Source: Pseudomonadota bacterium
GTDB lineage: Bacteria > Pseudomonadota > Alphaproteobacteria > CACIAM-22H2
NCBI GenBank assembly: GCA_016201015.1
Contig: JACQDQ010000194.1
Span: 11,149 to 75,148, forward strand
Length of the DNA stretch: 64,000 nt
Reading direction: 5' to 3'
How positions within the stretch are numbered: position 1 is the stretch's first letter; each line of letters opens with the position of its first letter. A program made the position numbers and the translations under genes. A model generated the notes under the pieces. The model had not been told where the DNA came from. It made no database searches and worked only from the letters and a program-made list of their open reading frames with translations. Positions 2 to 16,245 of the stretch are shown piece by piece.

Positions 2-724
2 CTGGCCCAGGCCGCCAACCGCACCAAGACCGACTTCCTGGCCGCCATGAGCCATGAATTGCGCACGCCGCTCAACGCCATCCTGGGCTTTTCGGAAATC
101 ATCGCCCGCGAGATGTTCGGACCGGTGGCAGAGCGTTACCGCGTCTATGGCCAGGACATCAATTCCGCCGGCCAGCATCTGCTGGCCATGATCAACGATA
201 TCCTGGACATCTCGCGGATCGAAATCGGCGCCTTTACCCTGTGCATCGAACCGGTGGAACCTCGGGAATTGGCGGATTCCTGCATCCGCCTGGTCTCTAC
301 CCGCGCCGAAGCCGGACAAATCCGCCTGATCGAGGATGTGGCTCCCCGCCTGCCCCGCCTGATGATCGACGGCCGCCGGACCAAGCAGATCTTCATCAAC
401 CTCTTGGGCAACGCGGTCAAATTCACCCCCGCGGGCGGCAGCGTCACCCTCAGGGCCGAACTGCCCGCCGACGGCGGCATGACCTTCCACGTCATCGATT
501 CCGGCATCGGCATGAGCGAGGCCGACATCGCCGTGGCGCTGTCACCCTTCGGGCAGGTGGAGACCGGGCTGGATCGGCGCTTCGAGGGCGCCGGCCTGGG
601 CCTGCCCCTGGCCAAGTCCCTGGCGGAACTGCATGGGGGCATTCTGGAAATCCGTTCCAGCCCCGGCCATGGCACCACCGTCAGCGTGCATTTCCCGGCT
701 TCCTGCCTCGAAAAGCCGGCCTAG
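2..724 (+). CDS. sensor histidine kinase, C-terminal part; 5' end lies outside the window
   Basis: HisKA H-box ([19 protein letters not shown]) and HATPase_c motifs ([22 protein letters not shown]). The reading frame is open to position 2. Confidence 0.8.
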
Positions 725-2639
725 GCGCCGGTCCGGCCGGCCGTCCGCCCCGCGGCACCAGTTGGTGCTTGCCCGGCCCGATGAGGTCGGCGCGGCCCAT
801 CTTGGCCAGAGCCTCGCGCAGGATCGGCCAGTTCTCGGGATCGTGAAAGCGCAGGAAGGCCTTGTGCAGGCGGCGCTGGCGCATTCCCTTGGCCGTGAAC
901 ACCTCGTTCGAATCACGGCGCACCGGCCGGATGGGATCGCGGCCGCTGTGATACATGGCGGTGGCCAGGGACATGGGCGTCGGCAGGAAGGTCTGGACCT
1001 GATCCAGCTTGAAGCCGTTGTTCTTCAGCCACAAAGCCAGATTGAGCATGTCCTCGTCGCTGGTGCCGGGATGGGCGGCGATGAAATAGGGGATCAGGTA
1101 GAGCTGCTTGCCGGCCTTCCTCGCCGCTGCCTCGAACATGTCGCGGAAGCGTTCGTAGGAACCGATGCCCGGTTTCATCATCTTGGCCAGCGGCCCGTCC
1201 TCGGTATGCTCGGGGGCGATCTTGAGATAGCCGCCCACATGGTGGCGGACCAGTTCCTCCACATAGGCCGGGCTTTTCACCGCCAGATCATAGCGCACCC
1301 CCGAGCCGATATTGACCCGCTTGACGCCCTTGACGGCGCGCGCCGCCCGGTACAACCCGATCAGCGGCTGGTGGTCGGTGCCCAGGGTCTTGCAGATATC
1401 GGGAAACACGCAAGACAGCCGCCGGCAGACCCTCTGGACCTCGGGCTCGCGGCAGCCCAGCCGCCACATATTGGCCGTCGGCCCGCCCAGATCCGAGATG
1501 GTGCCGGTGAAGCCCTTGGTATGATCGCGGATGGCCTCGATTTCACGGACCACCGAATCCTGGGAGCGGCTCTGGATGATGCGGCCCTCGTGCTCGGTGA
1601 TGGAGCAAAAGGAACAGCCGCCGAAACAGCCGCGCACGATGTTGATGGAAAAGCGGATCATCTCCCAGGCCGGGATCCTGGCATCGCCATAGGAGGGATG
1701 CGGCCCCCGCCCATAGGCCAGGTCGTAAACCCCGTCCAGTTCCGGCGTCGACAGCGGCCAGGGCGGCGCCGTGACCCATAATTCCTTGTCGCCGTGACGC
1801 TGGACCAGCGGCCGGGCGTTGAGGGGATTGCTCTCCTGGTGCAGCACCCGGGACGCCTGGGCATAGAGCACCGGATCGGCCTGCACCTGCTCGAAGGCCG
1901 GCAGGCGCACCACCACCTTGTCGCCTTTGATCGCGGCGGGGGCGGTGTCGATATCGCTGGCATCGATCACGCTCCAGCCCTCGGGCACGCCGTCGCGGAC
2001 GAAGGCGGTGCCGCGGATGTCATGCATGAGCTTGGGCGCCTCGCCCCCGGCGGCGCGCCGGGCGATCTCGACGATGGCGCGCTCGGCATTGCCGAACACC
2101 AGCAGATCGGCCTTGGCATCCATCAGCACCGAACGGCGCAGCTTTTCCGACCAGATGTCGAAATGGGCGATGCGCCGCAAACTGGCCTCGATGCCGCCGA
2201 GGATGACCGGAACGTCCTTGAAGGCTTCGCGGCAGCGCTGGGCATAGACGATGACGGCGCGATCTGGGCGCTTGCCGCCCTCGCCGCCCGGCGTATAGGA
2301 ATCATCGCTGCGGATGCGCCGATCCGAGGTATAGCGGTTGACCATGGAATCCATGTTGCCCGCCGTCACCCCGAAGAACAGCCGGGGTCGCCCCAGGGCG
2401 GTGAAGGCCTGGGGGCCGCTCCAATCGGGCTGGGCGATGATGCCGACCCTGAATCCCTGGGATTCCAGCAGGCGCCCGACGATGGCCATGCCGAAGCTGG
2501 GATGGTCCACATAGGCGTCGCCGGTGACCAGGACGATGTCGCATTGGTCCCAGCCCAACACATCCATCTCGGCCCGAGACATGGGAAGGAACGGCGCCGC
2601 CGCATGGGCGGGAAAGGTCAGAGGCAGGGGCTGGTCCAT
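681..2639 (-). CDS. ygiQ: YgiQ/UPF0313 family radical SAM protein
   Basis: 652 aa. N-terminus [48 protein letters not shown] and a CxxxCxxC-type radical SAM cysteine motif ([10 protein letters not shown]). Confidence 0.85.
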
Positions 2640-3812: not shown

Positions 3813-6413
3813 ATGCTGGCGACAATGTTGCGGAACCTGGCGGTAAGCGTAGTGGATTGGTGCTGGCACCGCGCCGCGACGGTGGTTGCCGTCGCCGCGC
3901 TGCTGACGGTTCTGTTGGGCCTGTATGCCGCCAAGACGCTGACCCTGGACACCGACGAGAGCAAGATGATCTCGTCCGATCTGCCCTTCCGTCAGGTCGA
4001 GCGCGCCATCGATGCCGCCTTCCCCCATTCCACCGACCGCCTGACCGTCATCCTGGACGGTCCCAGCGTGGAAATGGCCGAGGATGCCATCGAGCGGCTG
4101 GGCCAGGCCTTGCCGGCCCGGCACAAGGGCCTGGTCAATGCGGCGTCGCGCCCGGCCGAGGAAATGTTCTTCCGCCGCAATGGGCTGCTGTTCCTGTCGC
4201 TCTCCGAGGTCACCGCCCTCACCGAGCGCCTGGTGCAGTCCCAGCCTTTCCTGGGGGGGATCGCCCGCGACCCCTCGCTGCGCGGCCTGCTGGGCTCTGT
4301 CGATCTGATCTTGCAAGGCGTCGCCCATGGTCAGGCCCAGCCCGCCGACATCGAGCCGCTGCTGGCCCAATTGGAGGCCCCCGCCGCCGCCGCCGCCGCC
4401 GGAAAGAGCGTGGCGCCGGTGGATTGGCAGGGTCTGATGTCGGGAGGCGGCGCCAAGGATACGCCCCGGCGCTTCCTGATGGTCCAGGCGGCCCTGAATT
4501 ACGGCGAGCTGGAGCCTGGCTCCGACGCCATCGACGCCATCCGCGCCACCGCCCGCGATCTGGGCCTGACCGCCGCCAACGGCTATCATCTGCGCATCAC
4601 CGGACAGGTGGCCCTGTCCGACGCCAATTTCGCCACCGTGGCCGAAGGGGTGGAGATTTCGGCGCCGCTCTCCCTGCTGGCCGTACTGGGGCTGCTGTTC
4701 TGGGGCGTGCGCTCGGCCCGCGTGGTCGGCGCCATCATGATCTCCCTGGTGGTGGGGCTGGTGGCCACCGCCGCCTTCGCCGCCGCCACCGTCGGCAGCC
4801 TCAACCCCATCTCGGTGGCCTTCGCGGTGATGTTCGTGGGCATCGCCGTGGATTTCGCCATCCAGTTCGTCACCGCCTATCGCAACGAGCGCTACCTGAA
4901 GGGCGAGGCCGCCGCCGCCATCCTGGCCTCGGCCGGAACCATGGCGGCGCCCCTGTCCCTGGCGGCCATCGCCACCGCCGTGGGCTTCCTGTCCTTCCTG
5001 CCCACCGCCTATACCGGCGTGTCGCAATTGGGCCTGATCGCCGGCGGCGGCATGATCATCGCCCTGGTGGTGGACTTCACCGTCCTGCCCGCTTTGCTGG
5101 CCCTGCTCAAGCCCCATCCCGAGAAGGAACCGGTGGGCCTGCGTCTTCAGGCCGCCGATTCGTGGCTACGCCGCCGCTCCCGCCCCATCGTCTGGGTCGG
5201 CGGCGCCATCGCCCTGCTCGGCGCCGCCCTGCTGCCGATCATGAAGCTGGATTTCGATCCCCTGCACCTGCAAGACCCCAAGGCCGAGGCGGTCTCCACC
5301 TTCCTCGATCTGGCCCGCGACCCCGATAACGGCGTCTATGCCGTGGAGGCCCTGGCCCCCTCGGTGGCCGAGGCGGCCAGGCTGGCGGCGCGGTTCGAGG
5401 CGTTGCCCCAGGTCCATCGGGTCATGACCATCGAGACGTTCATCCCCGATGGCCAGGACGACAAGCTGCCGCTCATCACCGACGCCGCCATGGTCCTGGG
5501 GCCGACCCTGTCGCCGGCCAGGGTCATGGCCAAGCCCTCGCCCGAGGACTTGCTGGCCGCCATTTCCAAGGTCGCCGGGCAGCTCGAGACCATCGCGCCC
5601 GACCACAAGCCCTCCCAATCCCTGGCCCGCCATCTGCGCCGCATCGCCGAGCAGGGAGCCAAGGCCGCCATGGCCCTGGACCACAGCGTCGCCGACGGGC
5701 TGCCGGGATTGCTGTCGAGCCTGCGCCGCTCCCTCGATGTCGAGCCGGTCACCCTGGATTCCATTCCCGCCGAGCTAAAGCACGAATGGGTGGCCGCCGA
5801 TGGTCGCGCCCGCATCCAGGTTCTGCCCAAGGACAGCATGCAGGACCAGGAGGCCCGCAACCGCTTCAATGCCGCCGTCACCGCCATCACCCCCGCCATG
5901 TCCGGCGCTCCCATCTCCATGGAGCAATCGGGCCGGGTGGTCATCGGCGCCTTCGCCATCGCCGGCCTGGGGGCTCTGGCCGCCATCGGCCTGCTGCTGG
6001 GCCTGATGCTGCGCCGGGTGCTGGATTCGGTGCTGGTGCTGGCGCCGCTGCTGCTGGGCGCCATGGCCACGGTCATCGCGGCGCGGGCCACCGGGATCGC
6101 GCTCAACTTCGCCAATGTCATCGCCCTGCCCCTGCTGCTGGGCATCGGCGTCGCCTTCAACATCTATTTCGTGGTCAATTGGCGCAACGGCATCACCGAC
6201 CATCTGTCGTCGCCCACCACCCGCGCCGTGCTGTTCTCGGCCCTGACCACCGGATCGGCGTTCGGCAGCCTGGCCATGTCGCCGCATCTGGGCACGGCGT
6301 CCATGGGCCTGTTGCTGTTCTTGTCATTGGGACTGTCGGTGGCAGCCACCTTCGTGGTATTGCCGGCTATCTTCCATCTGATCGGCTCCCCTTCGAACGG
6401 AACGCCCAAGTGA
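3813..6413 (+). CDS. hpnN: hopanoid-associated RND/MMPL transporter HpnN
   Basis: 866 aa with two 6-TM MMPL blocks and large periplasmic loops; located within a cluster of hpn genes. Confidence 0.8.
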   Translation: MLATMLRNLAVSVVDWCWHRAATVVAVAALLTVLLGLYAAKTLTLDTDESKMISSDLPFRQVERAIDAAFPHSTDRLTVILDGPSVEMAEDAIERLGQALPARHKGLVNAASRPAEEMFFRRNGLLFLSLSEVTALTERLVQSQPFLGGIARDPSLRGLLGSVDLILQGVAHGQAQPADIEPLLAQLEAPAAAAAAGKSVAPVDWQGLMSGGGAKDTPRRFLMVQAALNYGELEPGSDAIDAIRATARDLGLTAANGYHLRITGQVALSDANFATVAEGVEISAPLSLLAVLGLLFWGVRSARVVGAIMISLVVGLVATAAFAAATVGSLNPISVAFAVMFVGIAVDFAIQFVTAYRNERYLKGEAAAAILASAGTMAAPLSLAAIATAVGFLSFLPTAYTGVSQLGLIAGGGMIIALVVDFTVLPALLALLKPHPEKEPVGLRLQAADSWLRRRSRPIVWVGGAIALLGAALLPIMKLDFDPLHLQDPKAEAVSTFLDLARDPDNGVYAVEALAPSVAEAARLAARFEALPQVHRVMTIETFIPDGQDDKLPLITDAAMVLGPTLSPARVMAKPSPEDLLAAISKVAGQLETIAPDHKPSQSLARHLRRIAEQGAKAAMALDHSVADGLPGLLSSLRRSLDVEPVTLDSIPAELKHEWVAADGRARIQVLPKDSMQDQEARNRFNAAVTAITPAMSGAPISMEQSGRVVIGAFAIAGLGALAAIGLLLGLMLRRVLDSVLVLAPLLLGAMATVIAARATGIALNFANVIALPLLLGIGVAFNIYFVVNWRNGITDHLSSPTTRAVLFSALTTGSAFGSLAMSPHLGTASMGLLLFLSLGLSVAATFVVLPAIFHLIGSPSNGTPK

Positions 6414-7273
6414 GCAAGCGCCTGATCGTCACCGCCGATGATTTCGGCCGCTCTCTCCAGGTCAACGACGCGGTGGAGGACGGGCATGTCAACGGCATCC
6501 TCACCGCCGCCAGCCTGATGGTCACCGAAGCCTGGGTCGAGGATGCGGTGGCCCGTGCCCGCCGCCTGCCCAATCTGGGGGTGGGGCTGCATGTGACCCT
6601 GGTGGACGGCATTCCCGCCCTGCCGCCGTCGCAAATTCCCGATCTGGTCGACGATAAGGGCCTCTTCACCCTGGATCTGGTCCGCCTCGGCACCCGCATC
6701 TTCCTGTCCAAGGCCGTCCAGGCCCAGGTCACCGCCGAGATGCGGGCCCAGTTCGAACTGTTCAGGCAGACCGGCCTGAAACTGGCCCATGTGGATTTCC
6801 ACCACCATTACCACCAGCACCCGACGGTCTTCGCCCTGGTGCTGAAGCTGGCGGTGGAATACGGGGCACCGGGCATCCGCATTCCCTATGAGCCGCCGCT
6901 GCCGTCCTACCGGGCCAGGGGCGACAAGCTGGGCCTGCGCCTGATGAACGGCATCTTCCACTGGCGCCGCAATCAGGCCATGCGCAAGGCCGCCTTGCGG
7001 GCCGGTCTGGTGGTCAATGACCGGGCCTTCGGGGTCAATGATTCTGGCGCCATGAATGCCGAACGGGTAGGCTCGTTCCTGGACGCCCTGCCCGACGGCC
7101 TCAACGAGATCTACAGCCATCCCGCCACCGGCCATTGGCAAGAGCGCCCCATGCCACCCAGCTATCAGGTGGCCGAGGAGTACAAGGCCCTGACCGCACC
7201 CGAGAACCGCCGCAAGATCGCCGAATTGGGCATCCGCCTCACCACCTTTGCCGCCGAGGCCGCCACGTCATGA
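6410..7273 (+). CDS. hpnK: hopanoid-associated YdjC-like deacetylase HpnK (GTG start overlapping the hpnN stop)
   Basis: VSKRLIVTADDFGRS...HVTLVDG YdjC signature. The ORF-track ORF at 5786 is an upstream extension of the same frame. Confidence 0.75.
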   Translation: MSKRLIVTADDFGRSLQVNDAVEDGHVNGILTAASLMVTEAWVEDAVARARRLPNLGVGLHVTLVDGIPALPPSQIPDLVDDKGLFTLDLVRLGTRIFLSKAVQAQVTAEMRAQFELFRQTGLKLAHVDFHHHYHQHPTVFALVLKLAVEYGAPGIRIPYEPPLPSYRARGDKLGLRLMNGIFHWRRNQAMRKAALRAGLVVNDRAFGVNDSGAMNAERVGSFLDALPDGLNEIYSHPATGHWQERPMPPSYQVAEEYKALTAPENRRKIAELGIRLTTFAAEAATS

Positions 7274-8250
7274 AAGCCGGCGCCATCCGTCTCGCCCTGA
7301 TCGCCGCCGTCCTGGCCGTGGCCTGGTGGCTGCGCGACGGTTTCGGCGATGTCCAGGGCGCGCTGGATACCGCCGGCTGGAGCGGCGTCGCCCTGATGGC
7401 CGTCACCCATATCCTGCCGCTGATCCTGTGCGGTCTGGCCTGGGGCTCGCTGCAGGACGAGATGCCGTCGCGGGTGTTCATGATGGGCCGCTGGATCAAG
7501 GACGGGGTCGGCGAGTTGGCCGGCTTCCTGCCGCTGTCGGGCGAGATGGCCGCCATCCGCATGATGACCCGCCACGGCTTCCGCTTCGCCGATGCCAGCG
7601 CCATCGTGGTGGTCGACGTCACCTCGGAAGCCATCGCCCAGTTCTTCTTCAGCCTGCTGGGTGTGGGCATGTGGCTGTGGCTCTATCCCCAGGCCGAGGT
7701 CACCCGCTGGGCCCTGATCGCCCTGGCCATCAGCGTGCCCGGCCTGGCCGCCTTCGTGGCGCTGCAGCGCTCGGCGGTGGTGCGGTTCCTCGAAACCCTG
7801 CCCTCCAAGATCATGCCCCATGCCTGGGACGCCCCCGACGCCGATGCCGGCGTGCATGCCGCCATCCATGCCCTGTACAGCGACCGCCGCCGCATCGCCA
7901 GGTCGGTGGGCTGGCACATCCTGGCCTGGGCCGCCGGCGCCATCGAGGCCTGGGTGGCGCTGCGCCTGCTGGGCCACCCAATGGGGATCGCCGAGGTTCT
8001 GGCGCTGGAAAGCATCATCTACGCCATCCGCTCGGTGGCTTTCGTCATTCCCGGAGCTATCGGCCTGCAGGAAGGCGGCTACATGCTGGTGGGCGCCGCC
8101 CTCGGCCTGCCCACCGAGCTGGCCCTGGCGGTCTCCCTGCTCAAGCGCGGCCGCGAGCTGATGATGGGCCTGCCCGCCCTGCTGGCCTGGCATTTCGTCG
8201 AAGGCGCCGCCAAGGCGAAAGCCCCGCCGGCGGAAACACCGAAGGTCTAG
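7270..8250 (+). CDS. hpnL: hopanoid-associated membrane protein HpnL (lysylphosphatidylglycerol-synthase-like TM family)
   Basis: MKAGAIRLALIAAVLAVAWW...; polytopic membrane protein of ~327 aa. Its ATG overlaps the hpnK stop. Confidence 0.7.
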   Translation: MKAGAIRLALIAAVLAVAWWLRDGFGDVQGALDTAGWSGVALMAVTHILPLILCGLAWGSLQDEMPSRVFMMGRWIKDGVGELAGFLPLSGEMAAIRMMTRHGFRFADASAIVVVDVTSEAIAQFFFSLLGVGMWLWLYPQAEVTRWALIALAISVPGLAAFVALQRSAVVRFLETLPSKIMPHAWDAPDADAGVHAAIHALYSDRRRIARSVGWHILAWAAGAIEAWVALRLLGHPMGIAEVLALESIIYAIRSVAFVIPGAIGLQEGGYMLVGAALGLPTELALAVSLLKRGRELMMGLPALLAWHFVEGAAKAKAPPAETPKV

Positions 8251-8280
8251 CACCGCTTGAGCCTATAGCCGATCAGCAAA

Positions 8281-8313
8281 AAGGCCACCTCTTGCGAGGT
8301 GGCCTTTTCCTTG
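8281..8313. terminator. bidirectional rho-independent terminator between convergent hpnL and hpnJ
   Basis: aaaaaGGCCACCTCttgcGAGGTGGCCttttcc: a perfect 9-bp stem flanked by an A-run and a T-run. Confidence 0.6.
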
Positions 8314-8326
8314 GCACCAGCCCGTA

Positions 8327-9757
8327 TCAGCAGGCGTTGGCGCGGTCACGGGTCCGCAGGAACTGGAAGAACTCGACGCCTTCGCGCAGGCGGCGCTTCA
8401 TCATGTCCCAATCCTGGATCATCTCCAGCAGGATCTCGCCGATCTTGCTGGGGCGGAAGTAGAAGGCCTTATAGAAATCGGCCACGCCCTTGAAGATTTC
8501 CTCGGACGAAAGGTCGGGGTAGTTCAGCGCCGCCACCTGCCAGCCATGGTCGATGACCAGTTCCTTCTCCTGCTTGAACCAGCCGTTGGCGATGGCCTGT
8601 TCGTACAGCTCGGTGCCCGGATAGGGCGCGGCCATGGACACCTGCAGGGTACGGGGATTGATTTCCTTGGCGAAGGCCAGGGTCTGCTTGATGGTCTCGC
8701 GGGTCTCGCCCGGCAGGCCCAGGATGAAGGTACCGTGGACGATGATGCCGAGCTCGTGGCAATCGGCGGCGAACTTTCTGACGATATCCAGGCGCAGGCC
8801 CTTGCGGATGTTGTTCAGGATCTCCTGCACGCCGGATTCGTAGCCCACCAGCAGCACGCGCAGGCCGTTGGCCTTCAGAACTTCCAGTGTCTTGCGCGGA
8901 ATATTGGCCTTGGCGTTGCACGACCACGGAATACCCAGACCGCCAATACCCTTGGCGATTTCCTCGACCCGCTCCAGATCGTCGGTGAAGGTGTCGTCGT
9001 CGAAGAAGAATTCCTTCACTTCCGGGAACAGGGCGCGGGCCTGCTTGACCTCCTCGATCACGGAAGCGGCGCTGCGGGCACGATAGACCCGACCGCCGAT
9101 GGTCTGCGGCCACAGGCAGAAGCTGCACTTGGATTTGCAGCCCCGGCCGGTATAGAACGACATATAGGGATGCTTGATGTAGCCGATGAAGTAATCATCC
9201 ACATTGAGATCGCGGCGATAGACCGGCGACACATAGGGCAGCGCATCCATGTCATGGATCAGCGCACGGTCCTTGGTATGGACCGGCTTGCCGTCCTCGC
9301 CCCGGAAGGTCAGGCCGTCGATCTCGGCGAAGGGCTTGCCCTCGGCCACCTCGACGATGGTGTAGTCGAATTCATTGCGGGCCACGAAGTCGATGGCGGT
9401 GGACGCCATCAGCGACGGCTCGGGCACGGTGGCCACATGGGCGCCGACCATGCCGATCACGATCTTGGGATTGGCGGCCTTGAACGCTTCGGCCACCTTG
9501 ATCTCGGACATATAGGTGGCGGCGCTGGCATAGATCACCAGCAGCTCGAAATCCTTGGCGAGGGGCAGCACGTCATCAAGCGTCTTGCCGCTGGCCGGAG
9601 CGTCCACCAGCTTGGAATCCGGCACCAAAGCGGCCAATTGGCCCAGCCAGGTGGGATACCAATTGGACTTGACCTCACGCTTGGCCTGGTAGCGGGCACC
9701 CGCACCACCGTCGAAACCTTCATAGGAGGGGGGATTGAGGAAAAGCGACTTCTTCAT
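8327..9757 (-). CDS. hpnJ: hopanoid-associated B12-binding radical SAM protein HpnJ
   Basis: 476 aa. B12-binding N-domain plus radical SAM CxxxCxxC (GRGCKSKCSFCLW); TIGR03471-like. Confidence 0.85.
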   Translation of the reverse strand: MKKSLFLNPPSYEGFDGGAGARYQAKREVKSNWYPTWLGQLAALVPDSKLVDAPASGKTLDDVLPLAKDFELLVIYASAATYMSEIKVAEAFKAANPKIVIGMVGAHVATVPEPSLMASTAIDFVARNEFDYTIVEVAEGKPFAEIDGLTFRGEDGKPVHTKDRALIHDMDALPYVSPVYRRDLNVDDYFIGYIKHPYMSFYTGRGCKSKCSFCLWPQTIGGRVYRARSAASVIEEVKQARALFPEVKEFFFDDDTFTDDLERVEEIAKGIGGLGIPWSCNAKANIPRKTLEVLKANGLRVLLVGYESGVQEILNNIRKGLRLDIVRKFAADCHELGIIVHGTFILGLPGETRETIKQTLAFAKEINPRTLQVSMAAPYPGTELYEQAIANGWFKQEKELVIDHGWQVAALNYPDLSSEEIFKGVADFYKAFYFRPSKIGEILLEMIQDWDMMKRRLREGVEFFQFLRTRDRANAC

Positions 9758-10923
9758 GGTTTAGTGCCTTCAGTGCCTTCAACAGGGGCGAGAGTGCCAT
9801 CCGGCTGGACGACAAAACGCCGGCCACGCCATACCACAGTTCGTCCGCAACATGCGACAACGTAGACGACGAACGACAGAATTTCCCTCAATGCCAGGAG
9901 CCCGACACCCGATGGGGGCAGACCCAGCGCTTTCTCCTCGGCCCGAACCGCCCACCACCGGCACAGCGCAGCAATCGCCAGTGCCGTCAGTCCCCAAGCC
10001 GATCCACCGCCGACCAGCACCGCCAGCAGCGCCAGGGCCACGGGTTGGGTGATCACCGACGCCATATAGGAAGGCCGGTCGACGGCGGCAATGGTCCGAC
10101 CCCAACGTATTTCGTGGGCCAGCAGGCTTTTCAGGTCGGGCTCGTGCACCATGATGTCCACGGGGCGCGCCGCCAGGGCGATTTCCAGCCCCTGATCGCG
10201 GACCATCTTGCCCAGCACCCAATCATCGGCCAGGACATCCGACAGGCGCTCCAGCCCGCCGCCGGCCTCCAGCACCGAACGCCGCACCGCCATGGTGGCG
10301 CCGAAGCAGCCGTCCTTGCGGCCGATGGCGCGGGCCAGCACCGCCCCAGGCAGAAAGCCGTGATTGATGCCCATGGCGCCCAAGGCGCTGCACGGACCCG
10401 GCACCGGGCGTCCCACATACAGGCTGGTCACCACGCCCACCTTGGTATCGGCGAAGGGGGCCGCCAGGTCGTCCAGGTAATGGGGATCGACCCGGATATC
10501 GCTGTCGGCGATGGCAATCAGGTCGTGGCGCACCAGCGGCCACATATTGAGCAGGTTGCCGACCTTGAGGTTGCGGCCGTGGCTGGCGGCATCGGCCACC
10601 ACCGATATCTCGGCGCCAGGCTGGTCGCCGGGCAGCGCCCTGACCACCGCCAGGGCCGGATCGGCGGGATCGGCCACCCCGAACACCAGCTGAAATTCGG
10701 GATAATCCTGGCGCAGGCACGAGGACAGATTCTCATCCATGCGCGGTTCGGCCCCGCACAGGGGCTTCATGACGCTGATGGGAGGACGCGGACCGGCACC
10801 GGGCTTGGGCGCCGCCTGGAAGCGGCGCACCAGCAAGGCCGAGGCCACCTGATAGAGGCATCCGGCGGCGGTCAGGGCGATCAGCAGCAGGGACAATCCC
10901 TGCCCGACGAGGCTCATCGCCAT
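9754..10923 (-). CDS. hpnI: hopanoid-associated family-2 glycosyltransferase HpnI
   Basis: GT2/ceramide-glucosyltransferase-like motifs (ISVMKPLCG, DYPEFQLVFGVADPADPA, DSD). The 3' end overlaps the hpnJ start. Confidence 0.8.
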   Translation of the reverse strand: MAMSLVGQGLSLLLIALTAAGCLYQVASALLVRRFQAAPKPGAGPRPPISVMKPLCGAEPRMDENLSSCLRQDYPEFQLVFGVADPADPALAVVRALPGDQPGAEISVVADAASHGRNLKVGNLLNMWPLVRHDLIAIADSDIRVDPHYLDDLAAPFADTKVGVVTSLYVGRPVPGPCSALGAMGINHGFLPGAVLARAIGRKDGCFGATMAVRRSVLEAGGGLERLSDVLADDWVLGKMVRDQGLEIALAARPVDIMVHEPDLKSLLAHEIRWGRTIAAVDRPSYMASVITQPVALALLAVLVGGGSAWGLTALAIAALCRWWAVRAEEKALGLPPSGVGLLALREILSFVVYVVACCGRTVVWRGRRFVVQPDGTLAPVEGTEGTKP

Positions 10924-11056
10924 CCCTCCCCCGTCATCCCCGGCGACGTCGAGGGATCTCCGCCAGAATTGCCGCTTCTTCCCAGGTACGGGCGGGCCGG
11001 AACGAGTTCCCTCTTCCCGATGGTGGCCGGGATGACGGACGGAACAGCTGGAAAGA

Positions 11057-11668
11057 TCACTTCTTTTCCAGGGCGACGGTCTGCTTCTCGATGGTCTCGA
11101 TCAGACCTGTAAAGCCCCTGGCCCGGAAAATGGAGACGAATTCCGAACGGCGCACCGCCACCTGGCTGACGGTGCCGTCGAACAGCACGTCGATCACCTT
11201 CCACTGGCCCTGGTCCTGGCGCATCACGTAGTCGATCTGGGTGGCGTCGCCGGCCTTGGGCACGATCCAGCTGGGTACGATGGTGCTGCCGGCGGCCGCG
11301 GCGCGGGGCTCGCCCACTTCAAAGCGCTCGCCATCCCATTCGTCGAATTGGGCGGCATAGGTCGCCACCGAGAACGCCGAATAGGTGTCGGCCAGTTTGG
11401 CGGCTTCCTCGGGCGTCAGCTTGGAGGCGGCGGTGCCCAGGGTGCTCTTGGTCATGGAGGCCATGTCGTAGGTGGCTCCCACGCTCGGACGCAGTTTATC
11501 GACACGGCCCTTGAAACCCAATTTGGGGCCATTCTTCATGACGTCGATCAGCGTCTCGTTGAATGAACGCACCACCGCTTCGGGAGCCAGGGACTGAGCC
11601 TGGGCGTCACCGGGAAGGGCAAGGAACAGGGCGAACAGCAACGACAGGCCGCCAAGGATCGAACGCAT
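11057..11668 (-). CDS. hpnM: hopanoid-associated MlaC/Ttg2D-like periplasmic protein HpnM
   Basis: Signal peptide MRSILGGLSLLFALFLALPGDAQA and a ~180 aa MlaC-family fold; first gene of the minus-strand hpnM-hpnI-hpnJ unit. Confidence 0.7.
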   Translation of the reverse strand: MRSILGGLSLLFALFLALPGDAQAQSLAPEAVVRSFNETLIDVMKNGPKLGFKGRVDKLRPSVGATYDMASMTKSTLGTAASKLTPEEAAKLADTYSAFSVATYAAQFDEWDGERFEVGEPRAAAAGSTIVPSWIVPKAGDATQIDYVMRQDQGQWKVIDVLFDGTVSQVAVRRSEFVSIFRARGFTGLIETIEKQTVALEKK

Positions 11669-11837
11669 GCATTATTCTCCTGCCTATAAATAAACGCCAC
11701 CCAGATGGTGCGCCCCCACGCCCTCTGCCATACCACATTATGGCGAGAGAACACCAGAGCCTGCCCAACCTTGAAGCGGGTGTCTGGACAGGCCATTTGA
11801 CTTATGGAAATGTACGTAGGGGGTTGGGGGGATTGGC

Positions 11838-13709
11838 ATGTTGGGTCTTTCGGGCCTATGGGCCAGACTGAAGGGGCGATTCCAAGACCGGGCCGTGCAG
11901 GATGCGCGGTTAGACGGCCGTGGGCAGAGCGCTCCTCACGAGGCCAGGCGTCCGCAAAGCGGTTTTCTTGACCCTGATACCTTCGCCCAGGTGATCCAGG
12001 GCGTCGCCGATGCCGATCAGGGTGAAGAGCGGCGCCTGCACGTCTTCTCCCTGGCCGATTTCCGTAATGCCGTCGGCTCCAAATGGGGGCGGCTGGGGGC
12101 CTTGCTGGAAGTGGCCGGAGACGCCATCATCCGCCGCCATATCGACCTGTCCAAGGATGTCGTCACCCGCCTGGATGCCGAGATCGCCTGTCTGGCCATG
12201 CCGGTGGCCAACCGCCAGGAGACCCGGACCCGTGTCGCGTCCATCGCCACCGATCTCTCCACCTATCTGTTCGGTGACGCCGTCATCAACGGCAGACGGC
12301 CACAGGTCGTCGCCGCCAACATGGCCTTCAAGGACGCCATCGCCGAGGACGGCAGTCTCGACCATGACGCCATCCGCAAGGCGGTGGCCACGGCGGGAGC
12401 GGCGCTGGAGGCCGGAGCGGCCCAGGTCTCCCCCCATCGCGCCACCCTGGCCGCCATGCTGCCCAGCGATCAGGCGGCGGCCCTCACGGGTGCATCGAGG
12501 ACCGGAGCCGCCTATTCCATCAGCGGCGGCGACAAACCCTATCGGATCGATCCCGACAGCGTGCCGCAATGGGTCACCGAGGAACCGGCCAAACGCCGAG
12601 CCAGCGATCAGCCCCTGCCCGCCTTCACGGTCGAGGGCCAACAACAATGGGACGGAATCGGCGAAAAGCCTGCCTGGGCAGTCGAGGGCGCGGCCTTGCG
12701 CGGCGCCGACGCCCCCATGACCACCTGGACGATGGCGGGCGGCAATCTCAACGGCGCCGACGCGGCTCGCCAATCCCTCTCCGTGGAAGGCAATGCCCTT
12801 ACCGGTGCCGACGCGGCCCGCCAGACCATGGTGGTCGAAGGCAAGGCCCTGAATGGCGCCGACGCCGCCCGCCAGACCCTGACCTTGGGAGCCAAGGACG
12901 GCAAGGGCGCCGATTGGCTGGAAGAACAGATGGAGCGCCAGGCCCAGGCCGGCCTGACATCGGGCAGCCATCTGAATGCCGATTCCAGCCTGACCCTGGT
13001 CTGGACCCCCACCTGGGTGGCCACCCGCCGGGCGGTGGGCGCCTTCCACGCCAAGGTCATCCGGGTCGATCGCGACGGCGCTCCGCCCCTGGAAGGGGTC
13101 AGGGCCTATACCGACGCCGCTCCCATCGAATCCCTGACCATGGACCGCTTCATCGCCACCCAGGCGGCCTATGAGCTGAAAGACCTGTTCTACGGCCGCC
13201 ACAAGGTGGGGCTGACCGTTCCCTTCCATTGGATGAGTCTGGCGCCGCGCTGGCGCGACTGCATCCGCATCCCGTTCGAGACCTGCCCGCCGCAAGCGCT
13301 GCGCAAATTGCTGAAGATCGAGATTTTCGGCCTGTCGCCGGCTATTCCGCCCCATGTCATCAACCGGCTGTTCGAGCCGCTGGAGAAATTGGACTGTCCG
13401 GTGATGGCCAGGCTGCCGCTGTCGGCGCCGGGAATGGTCAAGGCCTTGAAGGGCGTGCGCGCCATCGGCATCGATCTGGCCGAACTGCATGATGACGAAA
13501 AGGTCGGCGATTTGGAATTGTTGCAACGCATGGAGCGCTTCCGCGACGTCGCCCACAAATCGGGGATGGCCTGCTATGTCTGGGGCATTCGCCGCCGCCC
13601 GCTGATCGCCCAGGTGATCAAGGCCGGATTTTCCCTGGTCAACGGCCCGGGCGTCATGTGCGACCTCGCCCATCCCCGCCCGGCGACGGCCAATACCGCC
13701 GCCGAGTGA
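11838..13709 (+). CDS. hypothetical protein with GADAARQ-type tandem repeats and a degenerate EAL-like C-terminal domain
   Basis: C-terminal 250 aa align topologically to an EAL domain (KIEIFG~ELEITE, AIGIDLAEL~VLKIDRSFV, GFSLVNGPGV~GCDEAQGYLF) but lack the EAL and DDFGTG catalytic motifs. The centre has ~4 copies of (V/A)EGxAL(T/N)GADAARQ. Confidence 0.55.
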   Translation: MLGLSGLWARLKGRFQDRAVQDARLDGRGQSAPHEARRPQSGFLDPDTFAQVIQGVADADQGEERRLHVFSLADFRNAVGSKWGRLGALLEVAGDAIIRRHIDLSKDVVTRLDAEIACLAMPVANRQETRTRVASIATDLSTYLFGDAVINGRRPQVVAANMAFKDAIAEDGSLDHDAIRKAVATAGAALEAGAAQVSPHRATLAAMLPSDQAAALTGASRTGAAYSISGGDKPYRIDPDSVPQWVTEEPAKRRASDQPLPAFTVEGQQQWDGIGEKPAWAVEGAALRGADAPMTTWTMAGGNLNGADAARQSLSVEGNALTGADAARQTMVVEGKALNGADAARQTLTLGAKDGKGADWLEEQMERQAQAGLTSGSHLNADSSLTLVWTPTWVATRRAVGAFHAKVIRVDRDGAPPLEGVRAYTDAAPIESLTMDRFIATQAAYELKDLFYGRHKVGLTVPFHWMSLAPRWRDCIRIPFETCPPQALRKLLKIEIFGLSPAIPPHVINRLFEPLEKLDCPVMARLPLSAPGMVKALKGVRAIGIDLAELHDDEKVGDLELLQRMERFRDVAHKSGMACYVWGIRRRPLIAQVIKAGFSLVNGPGVMCDLAHPRPATANTAAE

Positions 13710-13725
13710 GAGTGGGCGAAATCCC

Positions 13726-14847
13726 CTATTCCATAACAATCCGCGGACCCTTGCGGCCACCGGCCTGGAGCGTCTGGACCTTGTCCCAGATCTTGGCGGC
13801 GATGGCCATGTAGGCCTTGGCGTGGGGCGAGTTGGGCTTGGAGACCACGATGGGCTCGCCCGCGTCGGAGGTCTGGCGGATGGCGATGTCCAGGGGCACT
13901 TCGCCCAGGAATTCGGTGGACAGTCGCGCCGCCTCCGCCTTGGCGCCGCCATGGCCGAAGATATGGGCCTCGTCGCCGCATTTCGGGCAGATGTAATAGC
14001 TCATGTTCTCGATGATGCCGAGGACCGGGACATCGACCTTGCGGAACATGTTGAGGCCCTTGGTGGCATCCAGCAGGGCGATATCCTGGGGCGTCGAGAC
14101 GATCACCGCGCCGGTCAGCGGCACGCGCTGGGTCATGGTCAGCTGGGTGTCGCCGGTGCCGGGCGGCATGTCGATGATCATCACGTCCAGCTCGCCCCAA
14201 TGGACGTCGCGCAACAGCTGTTCCAGAGCGCCCATGACCATGGGGCCGCGCCAGATGATGGGCGAATCCTCGGGCACCAGGAAGCCCATGGACATGCATT
14301 TGACGCCGTAATTCTCCATGGGCAGCATGGTCTGGCCGTCGGGGCTGACCGGCTCGCCCGATATGCCCAGCATGCGCGGCATGCTGGGTCCGAAGATATC
14401 GGCGTCGAACAGGCCGACCTTGAGCCCCATCTGCGACAGGGACATGGCGATGTTGGTGGCGGTGGTGGACTTGCCGACGCCGCCCTTGCCCGAGGCGATG
14501 GCGACGATGGCCTTGACGTGGGGCAGCAGCGGCTTTTCCGCCTGCCCCGCTCCACCATGCCCATGATCGTGGCCGCCCTTGGGCCCGCCCTGGGCATTGC
14601 GCTCGGCGGTCAGCACCGCCGAGACCGACAGCACGCCGGGCAGGTCGTGAACGGCCTTCTCGGCCGCCTTGCGCAGGGGCTCGAGATGAGGGCCGCGCTG
14701 GGCGTCGACCTCGATGGCGAAGGCGACATGGCCGTTCTTCACCACCAGACCTGACACCATGCCCAAGCTGACGATATCCGCCTTGCGGTCGGGGTCGTTG
14801 ATCCGCTTCAGCGCCTCGATGATCTGCTGCTCGGTGAGCTCGGCCAT
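13726..14847 (-). CDS. apbC: Fe-S cluster carrier ATPase Mrp/ApbC
   Basis: MAELTEQQIIEALKRINDP N-domain, Walker A (ASGKGGVGKST) and CPxC (YYICPKCG). Start placed at the conserved MAELT methionine. Confidence 0.9.
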   Translation of the reverse strand: MAELTEQQIIEALKRINDPDRKADIVSLGMVSGLVVKNGHVAFAIEVDAQRGPHLEPLRKAAEKAVHDLPGVLSVSAVLTAERNAQGGPKGGHDHGHGGAGQAEKPLLPHVKAIVAIASGKGGVGKSTTATNIAMSLSQMGLKVGLFDADIFGPSMPRMLGISGEPVSPDGQTMLPMENYGVKCMSMGFLVPEDSPIIWRGPMVMGALEQLLRDVHWGELDVMIIDMPPGTGDTQLTMTQRVPLTGAVIVSTPQDIALLDATKGLNMFRKVDVPVLGIIENMSYYICPKCGDEAHIFGHGGAKAEAARLSTEFLGEVPLDIAIRQTSDAGEPIVVSKPNSPHAKAYMAIAAKIWDKVQTLQAGGRKGPRIVME

Positions 14848-15099
14848 GCTGTCCTCTTCGTTGGAGAAGCTTAGTAATTTAGTTGGGTATGTGCCGCCAC
14901 GGCCGCACAAGCATCTCCTCATATAGGGCCGCCGCTTGCGTTTGCAAAGGCGATTTCCCTCCCCTCGGCCCCGGCCCGTTGTTTATTGAAAACAGGTAAT
15001 GTTCGCCCCTCGCGTTGCGCGAGCCGGAATCCTGCCCTATGTTCCGAGGGCGTGGGTCTTGGCCCGCGCACCCATCTGACTTCGACAAGGGGACAATAT

Positions 15100-16245
15100 A
15101 TGCCTTGGAATCCTCGCGGCGGCGGCGGCGGCCCCTGGGGTAACGGCGGCGGCGGCGGCGGCCCCTGGGGCGGCGGCGGCAACAACCGGCCCGGCGGCGG
15201 CAATGGCGGCGGCCTGGGCGGCGGTCCCGATATCGAAGACTTCATCCGCAAGGGTCAGGAAAAGCTGCGCCGCGCCATGCCGGGCGGCCCCGGCGCCGTC
15301 AATGGCGGCCAGGGACTGATGGTGCTGGCGGCGCTGGCGGTGGCGGCCTGGGTGTTCTCGGGCATCTACAAGGTCAGCCCCGACGAGCAGGGCGTGGTCC
15401 TGCGTTTCGGCCAATGGGTCGACACCACCGAGCCCGGCCTGCATTACCGCCTGCCCTATCCCATCGATACGGTGCTTCTGCCCAAGGTGACCAAGGTCAA
15501 CCAGTTGCAGCTGGGCTATCGCTCGGTGGGTGAGAGCCGGGGCGAGCGCGGCTCGACATCGCGCAACGTGCTCGAGGAAAGCCGCATGCTGACCGGCGAC
15601 GAAAATATCGTCGAGGCCGATGCCGCCGTGTTCTGGCGCATCAAGGATGCCGGCAAGTTCCTGTTCAACGTCCGCGACCCGGAAATCACCGTCAAGGTCG
15701 CCGCCGAGAGCTCCCTGCGCGAGGTCATCGGCCGCAATCCCATCCAGGCGGCCCTGTCCGACAAGCGCGAGCAGATCGCCCTTCAGGCCCAGGAAGAGCT
15801 GCAACGCCTGCTTGACGCCTATGGCGCCGGCATCCAGGTGCAGCAGGTGCAATTGCAGAAGGTGGACCCGCCGTCAGCGGTCATCGACGCCTTCAACGAT
15901 GTCCAGCGTGCCCGCGCCGACCAGGAACGCGCCCGCAACGAGGCCGAGGCCTACCGCAACGACATCATCCCCCGCGCCCGTGGCGAGGCCGAGCGTCTGA
16001 CCCAGGAGGCCCAGGCCTACCGCGAGCAGGTGGTCGATCTGGCCCAGGGCGACGCCAAGCGCTTCCTGTCCGTCTACGGCGCCTACAAGCAGGCCGAGGA
16101 CGTGACCGCAAGGCGCCTCTACATCGAGACCATGGAAGAAATCCTGAAAAGCGCCACCAAGGTGATCATCGATCCCTCCGCCAAGGGAGTGGTGCCCTAT
16201 CTGCCGCTTCCCGAACTAAAGAAGCAGGCCGGAGGCGCCCGATGA
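15100..16245 (+). CDS. hflK: HflK, FtsH protease modulator
   Basis: Gly-rich N-terminus, a TM helix and a SPFH/band-7 domain; immediately followed by hflC. Confidence 0.9.
   Translation: MPWNPRGGGGGPWGNGGGGGGPWGGGGNNRPGGGNGGGLGGGPDIEDFIRKGQEKLRRAMPGGPGAVNGGQGLMVLAALAVAAWVFSGIYKVSPDEQGVVLRFGQWVDTTEPGLHYRLPYPIDTVLLPKVTKVNQLQLGYRSVGESRGERGSTSRNVLEESRMLTGDENIVEADAAVFWRIKDAGKFLFNVRDPEITVKVAAESSLREVIGRNPIQAALSDKREQIALQAQEELQRLLDAYGAGIQVQQVQLQKVDPPSAVIDAFNDVQRARADQERARNEAEAYRNDIIPRARGEAERLTQEAQAYREQVVDLAQGDAKRFLSVYGAYKQAEDVTARRLYIETMEEILKSATKVIIDPSAKGVVPYLPLPELKKQAGGAR
15110..15200 (+). repeat. (GGC)n microsatellite with an imperfect 24-nt direct repeat inside the hflK 5' coding region
   Basis: cggcggcggcggcggcccctgggg occurs twice, separated by aac/ggc; encodes GGGGPWG repeats. 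Confidence 0.7.

Follow-up and report, generated by a model that had tools for sequence, protein, structure and literature searches.

The gene described here occupies positions 11838 to 13709 of the window, by which we mean the whole 64,000-nucleotide (nt) stretch of contig JACQDQ010000194.1 that was analyzed, and it encodes a soluble protein of 623 amino acids (aa) in which a long low-complexity linker joins an N-terminal GGDEF-like domain to a C-terminal EAL-like domain, both of them degenerate (Table 1). An earlier note made from the sequence alone had given exactly these coordinates and had described the product as a repeat-containing protein with a catalytically dead EAL-like domain located beside a hopanoid gene cluster. 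The ATG start is preceded, at approximately 8 nt, by a Shine-Dalgarno-like GGGGA. We take 11838 to 13709 as the coding frame because its G+C content at third codon positions (GC3 = 0.81) matches that of the neighboring genes (0.79 to 0.88), because 60 close homologues were found, and because it yields confident AlphaFold2 (AF2) models. An antisense open reading frame (ORF) of 680 aa (11910-13952, minus strand; GC3 0.68, G+C at first codon positions 0.78) spans the whole gene and extends into the adjacent mrp gene. It was ruled out as a true gene by its GC3 (0.68 versus 0.81) and by homology, and comparable antisense shadow ORFs are present in all homologous loci.

A homologue search found the protein to be 100% identical to the hypothetical protein HY055_14620 of a Magnetospirillum sp. 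metagenome-assembled genome (MAG). The 60 homologues align along the 623-aa protein at 43 to 76% identity, and their alignment falls into three regions, namely, a conserved one at residues ~63-195, a hypervariable linker, and a second conserved one at residues ~385-615. Two UniRef clusters among them carry the automatic name "EAL domain-containing protein." Scans of the protein against Pfam and NCBIfam returned no family, even at E ≤ 10, and no sensor domain was among their results; none of the homologues from the homologue search carries a precomputed Pfam domain. No transmembrane segment was found in the 623-aa protein, the maximum Kyte-Doolittle hydropathy over 19 residues being 1.21. With phmmer against PDB sequences, the protein gave just spurious weak matches to FruR/Cra in the linker (E 0.19 to 1.1), and a close-family profile returned nothing relevant from the PDB, FimX being reached only with a profile broadened to 61 divergent sequences.

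The AF2 model of residues 375 to 623 has a predicted local distance difference test (pLDDT) score of 93 and a predicted template modeling (pTM) score of 0.90. A Foldseek search of the PDB with this model produced 119 matches at E ≤ 1e-3, and the top 50 were all EAL domains with template modeling (TM) scores of 0.62 to 0.72. The best match was the EAL domain of the degenerate receptor FimX (E 1.6e-10, TM 0.70), followed by MorA, BifA, LapD (structures 3pju, 3pjt, and 3pjw among the matches), and others; YdiV and STM1697 were not among these top 50. In PDB sequences, FimX was also the one EAL protein matched by the 61-sequence family profile (E 3.3e-9 to 7e-7). Moreover, hhalign aligned the family EAL-like domain, represented by the 61-sequence alignment, with a canonical alignment of Escherichia coli PdeK and PdeH and two FimX sequences at 95.8% probability (E 7e-9, 215 columns). 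The comparison succeeded only with this deeper alignment, since a shallow close-family alignment (effective number of sequences, 2.2) gave a probability below 1%. The EAL fold that the earlier note had placed at residues ~380-620 is found at ~385-615, and the outcome which that note had named as refuting it, the absence of any EAL-fold match, is contradicted by the structure search, with nothing but EAL domains in its top 50, and by the 95.8% probability of the profile-profile comparison. Nine of the 61 divergent members match the Pfam EAL profile PF00563 (best value 1.2e-8), and one distant member (P0176) has PF00563 on record. The window protein itself fails the PF00563 gathering threshold, and its EAL homology is supported transitively, through distant relatives and hhalign. 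No canonical EAL or GGDEF protein was found in the window to serve as an internal reference; PdeH, searched against the PDB at E ≤ 1e-10, matched STM1697 alone.

The N-terminal third of the protein, which the earlier note had overlooked, is a second and equally degenerate domain, with a GGDEF/palm-type fold nearest to that of diguanylate cyclases. LapD structures (3pjx, 6pwj, and 6pwk) are among its structural matches. A profile of this domain alone ranks GGDEF structures first, with SadC at 2.2e-3, and the 61-sequence profile matches the GGDEF domains of SadC and DgcB, more weakly than the FimX EAL domain. The Pfam GGDEF profile PF00990 is matched by 6 of the 61 divergent members (best value 8.8e-8) and gave no match in the window protein itself. 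In the alignment, RYGGEEF of SadC corresponds to R111-L-D-A-E-I-A117 (family consensus "rldedvf"), the GG(D/E)EF signature reading D113-A-E-I-A117. The metal-binding Asp of DxDxFK is replaced by S71 and the GTP-binding Asn by V79, such that the signature, metal ligand, and GTP-binding residue of an active GGDEF diguanylate cyclase are all lost. The RxxD of the inhibitory site (I-site), which lies five residues before the signature, is here L104-S-K-D107, with D107 conserved and the Arg position taken across the close family by P, L, S, or A. The RxxD that characterizes PopA/PelD-type I-site receptors of cyclic di-GMP (c-di-GMP) is therefore not found here. The GGDEF-like domain has no intact I-site and, from these replacements, is predicted to lack cyclase activity. 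We conclude that GGDEF and EAL domains stand in tandem in this protein, both too divergent for curated profiles to recognize.

We then compared ten catalytic residues of EAL phosphodiesterases, i.e., the E and R in EALxR, the N in NxS, both E in ExxE, both D in DDFGTG, the K in KxD, E in EGVE, and the Q in QG, using HMMER and HH-suite alignments that agree with each other. Only one of the ten (E495) is left, and the earlier statement that the EAL and DDFGTG residues are lost and the domain catalytically dead is well supported. Canonical EAL phosphodiesterases (PdeH, PdeK, RocR, MorA, and BifA) have the same fold as the window protein (TM 0.62 to 0.72) and share with it the P in QP, the D in IDxW and in KxD, the first E in ExxE, and the G in EGVE and in QG, whereas the nine catalytic residues other than that first E are replaced. 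Because the GGDEF metal, GTP, and I-site residues are gone and nine of the ten EAL catalytic residues are replaced, the protein would be expected neither to make c-di-GMP nor to hydrolyze it by the known two-metal mechanism.

The former active site is nevertheless strongly conserved, with a different set of residues: P391, W393, D436, P462, E495, R525, G544, D546, W582, G583, R585, N602, and G603. Among the 61 divergent members, mean conservation is 0.70 at site-equivalent positions versus 0.39 over the whole domain, P462, G544, and R525 are found in 92%, 90%, and 87% of sequences, respectively, and W582 and R585 are the majority residues; both are invariant in the close family. H464 is conserved at 75%. 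Nine of the 17 site-equivalent positions lie within the 20 most conserved of 231 domain columns, as compared to 1.5 expected (hypergeometric P = 6e-7), an enrichment that is inflated by G603, P391, G583, D436, and D546, which are conserved in ordinary EAL domains for structural reasons. Three acidic metal ligands have become Arg or Trp (D to R525, E to W582, and E to R585), while D436, E495, and D546 are retained. Arg and Trp in place of acidic ligands, together with the three acids kept, might be what a metal-free nucleotide pocket looks like.

The two domains are separated by a 189-aa linker composed at 68% of A, G, P, S, T, Q, E, and D, and its length is hypervariable in homologues (90 to 244 aa). 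From this composition and length variability, the linker is presumably disordered or flexible. Within it lie four tandem repeats, with GADA at residues 289, 306, 323, and 340 and a partial fifth GAD at 357. Tandem Repeats Finder (TRF) reports a 51-nt unit in 2.9 copies at 12750-12897 (74% matches, score 163); the earlier count of about four copies stands, and the unit is 17 aa (51 nt) rather than the 20 aa (60 nt) then proposed. The suggestion that copy number varies among strains was borne out, as GADAxR occurs 0 to 5 times in the 60 homologues. Most of the family lacks the repeats, which occur only in the Magnetospirillum and Phaeospirillum clade; this absence from most homologues and their place in a linker of hypervariable length led us to reject a folded repeat domain. 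As judged from the alignment, they are an expandable and dispensable portion of the presumably flexible tether. Short islands of the linker are conserved in the close family, namely, APHRATLAA(L/M)L (~198-208), A(I/Y)SISGG (~224-230), P(Q/D)W (~243-246), and, just before the EAL-like domain, DWL(D/E)xQ(L/M) (~359-365). These islands may be short linear interaction motifs. At the other end of the protein, the N-terminal peptide MLGLSGLWARLKGRF is retained in homologues down to ~45% identity and is followed by a poorly conserved basic tail; it is possibly a docking or amphipathic helix.

Table 1. Features of the gene, equivalents of EAL motif residues in its product, and neighboring hopanoid genes
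Feature	Residues	Positions	Strand	Basis
Whole gene, 623-aa soluble protein: degenerate GGDEF-like domain, long low-complexity linker, degenerate EAL-like domain	1-623	11838..13709	+	ORF call, homologues
Conserved N-terminal peptide MLGLSGLWARLKGRF, pattern M-x-L-x-x-L-W-...-R-F	1-15	11838..11882	+	homologue alignment
GGDEF-fold domain, catalytically degenerate	~63-195	12024..12422	+	
GG(D/E)EF signature position	113-117	12174..12188	+	SadC alignment, site table
Low-complexity inter-domain linker, 189 aa	196-384	12423..12989	+	composition, homologue lengths
Four tandem 17-aa repeats GADA[AP][RM]xxhxhxGxxLx	289-356	12702..12905	+	TRF, motif positions
EAL-fold domain, catalytically dead, pocket remodeled yet strongly conserved	~385-615	12990..13682	+	AF2, Foldseek, profile, hhalign
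QP	T390, P391 (P kept)			
E of EAL	H404			
R of EALxR	I408; invariant R409 adjacent, register uncertain by one			
D of IDxW	D436 (kept)			
N of NxS	P462			
ExxE	E495 (kept), G498			
DD of DDFGTG	A524, R525			
K and D of KxD	G544, D546 (D kept)			
EGVE	W582, G583, I584, R585			
QG	N602, G603 (G kept)			
Divergent intergenic region between hpnM (-) and the gene (+), 169 nt		11669..11837	.	sequence
hpnN		3813-6413	+	NCBIfam above cut-off
hpnK		~6416-7273	+	NCBIfam above cut-off
hpnL		7135-8250	+	NCBIfam above cut-off
hpnJ		8327-9757	-	NCBIfam above cut-off
hpnI		9754-10923	-	NCBIfam above cut-off
hpnM		11057-11668	-	NCBIfam above cut-off

At E ≤ 1e-3, an exhaustive profile search recovered 912 cluster representatives (clustering at 50% identity), of which 410 also reached E ≤ 1e-10; the majority are 420 to 660 aa long with a match spanning both domains. 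Members of the close family come only from Rhodospirillales, namely, Magnetospirillum, Paramagnetospirillum, Phaeospirillum, Telmatospirillum, and Rhodospirillaceae MAGs, and the distant members that carry names are all "hypothetical protein" from Alphaproteobacteria or Rhodospirillales MAGs. The 90%-identity cluster of one member (P0071) also holds a 54-aa fragment labeled "unnamed protein product [Brassica oleracea]," which is probably bacterial contamination in a plant assembly.

Upstream of the gene, positions 3813 to 11668 hold a compact cluster of hopanoid side chain and transport genes, itself preceded by a gene for a YgiQ-type radical SAM protein (Radical_SAM_N, Radical_SAM, and DUF3362; 681-2639, minus strand). 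The divergent arrangement with the hpnM-hpnI-hpnJ side reported in the earlier note is borne out, hpnM being separated from the gene by 169 nt that presumably hold the promoters of both. No sigma-70 consensus and no Rfam match was found in this intergenic region, and neither the promoter and terminator scans nor the Rfam scan of 11500-14000 yielded a credible element; both of the Rfam matches returned were to eukaryotic families and far below threshold. On the other side, a convergent gene for an Mrp/ApbC-type ATPase (13726-14922, minus strand) ends 16 nt from the stop of the gene, with no intrinsic terminator predicted on either strand between them (13707-13728). It is followed by a gene for an HflK homologue (14986-16245, plus strand), whose product, when read from the listed TTG start, begins with a long low-complexity stretch rich in Gly and Pro (GGGGGPWGNGGGGGGPWGGGGNNRPGGGNGGGLGGG).

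All-versus-all clustering of flanking ORFs revealed no neighbor shared across the family. Other homologues lie beside genes for a methyl-accepting chemotaxis protein (MCP) and an M23 peptidase, a cox cluster and a GGDEF protein, a NUDIX protein and DUF1178, PAS sensor kinases, a PAS kinase and a response regulator, a further cox cluster, or fructose-bisphosphatase (FBPase) and ffh. Two distant members with 29 to 48% identity to the window protein, P0044 (locus L002, 162-5821) and P0071 (locus L029, 1-5847), adjoin an aa3-type cytochrome c oxidase cluster (COX1/2/3, CtaG, UbiA, and COX15); P0044 is in addition followed by an ETR1_N-GGDEF protein. This adjacency could reflect lineage synteny or be a weak functional hint; as it concerns two distant members and is not family-wide, the cox cluster was set aside as a conserved functional neighbor.

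Degenerate GGDEF-EAL proteins are a well-known kind. Four features set this one apart: how far it has diverged, its soluble stand-alone architecture with a very long tether, the remodeled and conserved pocket, and the size of the family. The nearest characterized relative is the GGDEF-EAL module of FimX, the type IV pilus c-di-GMP receptor (Pseudomonas aeruginosa PA4959; Xanthomonas FimX), which is likewise a degenerate tandem with noncanonical residues at the N of NxS, DD, and EGVE positions, although identity to the window protein is just 15 to 18%. FimX has REC-PAS input domains and a short linker, whereas the window protein shows no REC or PAS domain in Pfam and NCBIfam and has a linker of 189 aa; FimX acts in the pilus machinery, whereas neither pilus nor PilZ context was found here. 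The degenerate GGDEF motif of FimX, GDSIF, resembles the broad-family consensus G-(D/E)-D-x-(F/Y). LapD, the inside-out receptor of Pseudomonas fluorescens and Vibrio cholerae, also combines two degenerate, noncatalytic domains, but it sits in the membrane and carries a periplasmic domain, HAMP, and S-helix, while the window protein is soluble with no transmembrane segment and no HAMP. The inter-domain linker of LapD is short, in contrast to the long one found here, and LapD keeps R450 at the center of its binding site (PMC3032553).

FimX and LapD both bind c-di-GMP via their degenerate EAL domains (PMC3527489, PMC3032553), and binding by the EAL-like domain of the window protein is a possibility to be set against the residues themselves. 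In the FimX-c-di-GMP complex, the ligand is contacted by L477, R479, D507, K616, E654, and Y673, and F652 stacks on guanine (PMC3527489). In the order L477, R479, D507, K616, F652, E654, and Y673, these positions map to K406, I408, D436, G544, G583, R585, and P604, and E475, L477, R479, K616, F652, E654, Q671, and Y673, all kept in FimX, read H, K, I, G, G, R, N, and P in the window protein. YdiV/RflP illustrates another fate of the fold, being a degenerate EAL protein that binds FlhD and acts through protein-protein contact (PMC3510510). Like the window protein, YdiV/RflP and STM1697 have an EAL fold devoid of the catalytic and many of the ligand-binding residues; unlike it, YdiV and STM1697 are stand-alone EAL proteins with no GGDEF-like domain, long linker, or strongly conserved remodeled pocket. 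CsrD and BluF are further c-di-GMP-blind degenerate EAL proteins that act via protein contacts.

We tentatively favor, as plausible though somewhat short of probable, a reading in which the protein is a noncatalytic adaptor or receptor of the FimX type and uses its conserved pocket to sense a guanine-nucleotide messenger, with c-di-GMP as the first candidate. Under this proposal, a soluble, free-standing, and noncatalytic GGDEF-EAL tandem would retain its former active-site face as a functional binding pocket, in which the messenger would most likely be held without metal, Arg residues contacting the phosphates and Trp stacking on the base. Occupancy would be relayed to a partner through the GGDEF-like domain, the N-terminal peptide, or the linker motifs, with the 17-aa repeats serving as an expandable and dispensable linker part. 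Several observations weigh against it. Only one of the seven FimX c-di-GMP contact residues is kept in aligned register (D507, here D436), and the signature that the earlier note had considered typical of c-di-GMP-binding receptors is thus absent in its FimX form; R409 and W582, though conserved, fall a single position away from FimX R479 and F652, where the register is ambiguous; the linker of 90 to 244 aa is unlike the short one that allows communication between GGDEF and EAL domains in LapD and FimX; and the enrichment statistic is inflated as described above. The same losses suit a ligand-blind adaptor, in which both domains would be pure protein-protein modules binding no nucleotide and the conserved residues a partner-binding or structural surface. 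In addition to most of the FimX contacts, the Q in QP and in QG, the K in KxD, and the Arg of the I-site are all gone, the N-terminal peptide and linker motifs resemble docking elements, and YdiV/RflP provides a precedent. Drift would however be expected at former active-site positions in such a protein, yet these are the most conserved columns; the Arg and Trp substitutions are typical of nucleotide pockets, and the sole solved relative detectable by sequence, FimX, binds c-di-GMP. We regard this adaptor as a real but less likely possibility. That the remodeled pocket (R409, D436, P462, E495, R525, G544, D546, W582, R585, and N602) defines a new EAL-derived receptor class, one that would bind c-di-GMP without metal in a novel way or would take some other ligand, such as another cyclic or linear nucleotide, appears doubtful.

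Two further readings would assign the gene a more specific role. The earlier note had raised the possibility that a c-di-GMP receptor controls the divergent hpnM-hpnI-hpnJ genes, tying c-di-GMP to hopanoid or envelope remodeling. The shared intergenic region suits this idea, and the order hpnJ-hpnI-hpnM, gene, mrp, and hflK recurs in Magnetospirillum sp. XM-1 and MAG GS7, both ~70% identical; this recurrence is uninformative because the whole region is collinear there, mrp and hflK included. A tblastn search with HpnM, HpnI, and HpnJ located hpn genes within 6 kb at only 2 of 25 homologous loci (L006 and L008), which are these collinear close relatives, so that the basis of the link is adjacency within a single shallow clade. 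Other homologues stand in the unrelated contexts listed above, and no DNA-binding domain was seen in the protein by Pfam, NCBIfam, or Foldseek of both domains. HpnM, HpnI, and HpnJ are moreover widespread in bacteria that do not have this GGDEF-EAL-like family, which also counts against such control. We thus consider it very improbable, and the position beside hpnM a lineage-specific accident of gene order rather than a functional coupling. The least probable reading is one of retained enzymatic activity, with the protein acting as a phosphodiesterase or another hydrolase through a noncanonical site made of E495, D546, D436, H464, and arginines. Three acidic residues and the conserved His do remain near the barrel mouth, and weak phosphodiesterase activity has been reported for the degenerate FimX (PMC3527489), but the nine essential residues lost include both Asp of DDFGTG, the catalytic Lys, and the general base of EGVE, and no metal-binding constellation is left.

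Taken together, these results remove a tempting but unsupported story, that of c-di-GMP control of hopanoid remodeling. A census of alphaproteobacterial c-di-GMP genes, which singles out Magnetospirillum as rich in them, chose proteins by PF00563 and PF00990 (PMC9756655), and our Pfam results suggest that it would have missed most of this family. Since the family lies mostly outside the Pfam GGDEF and EAL profiles, it would form a hidden layer of the c-di-GMP network in magnetotactic and related Rhodospirillales. The conservation of active-site positions with a different set of residues offers a concrete hypothesis for the repurposing of EAL domains as sensors. If a new receptor class should prove true, this largely unannotated family of about 900 clusters would be a signaling node invisible to Pfam-based c-di-GMP censuses.

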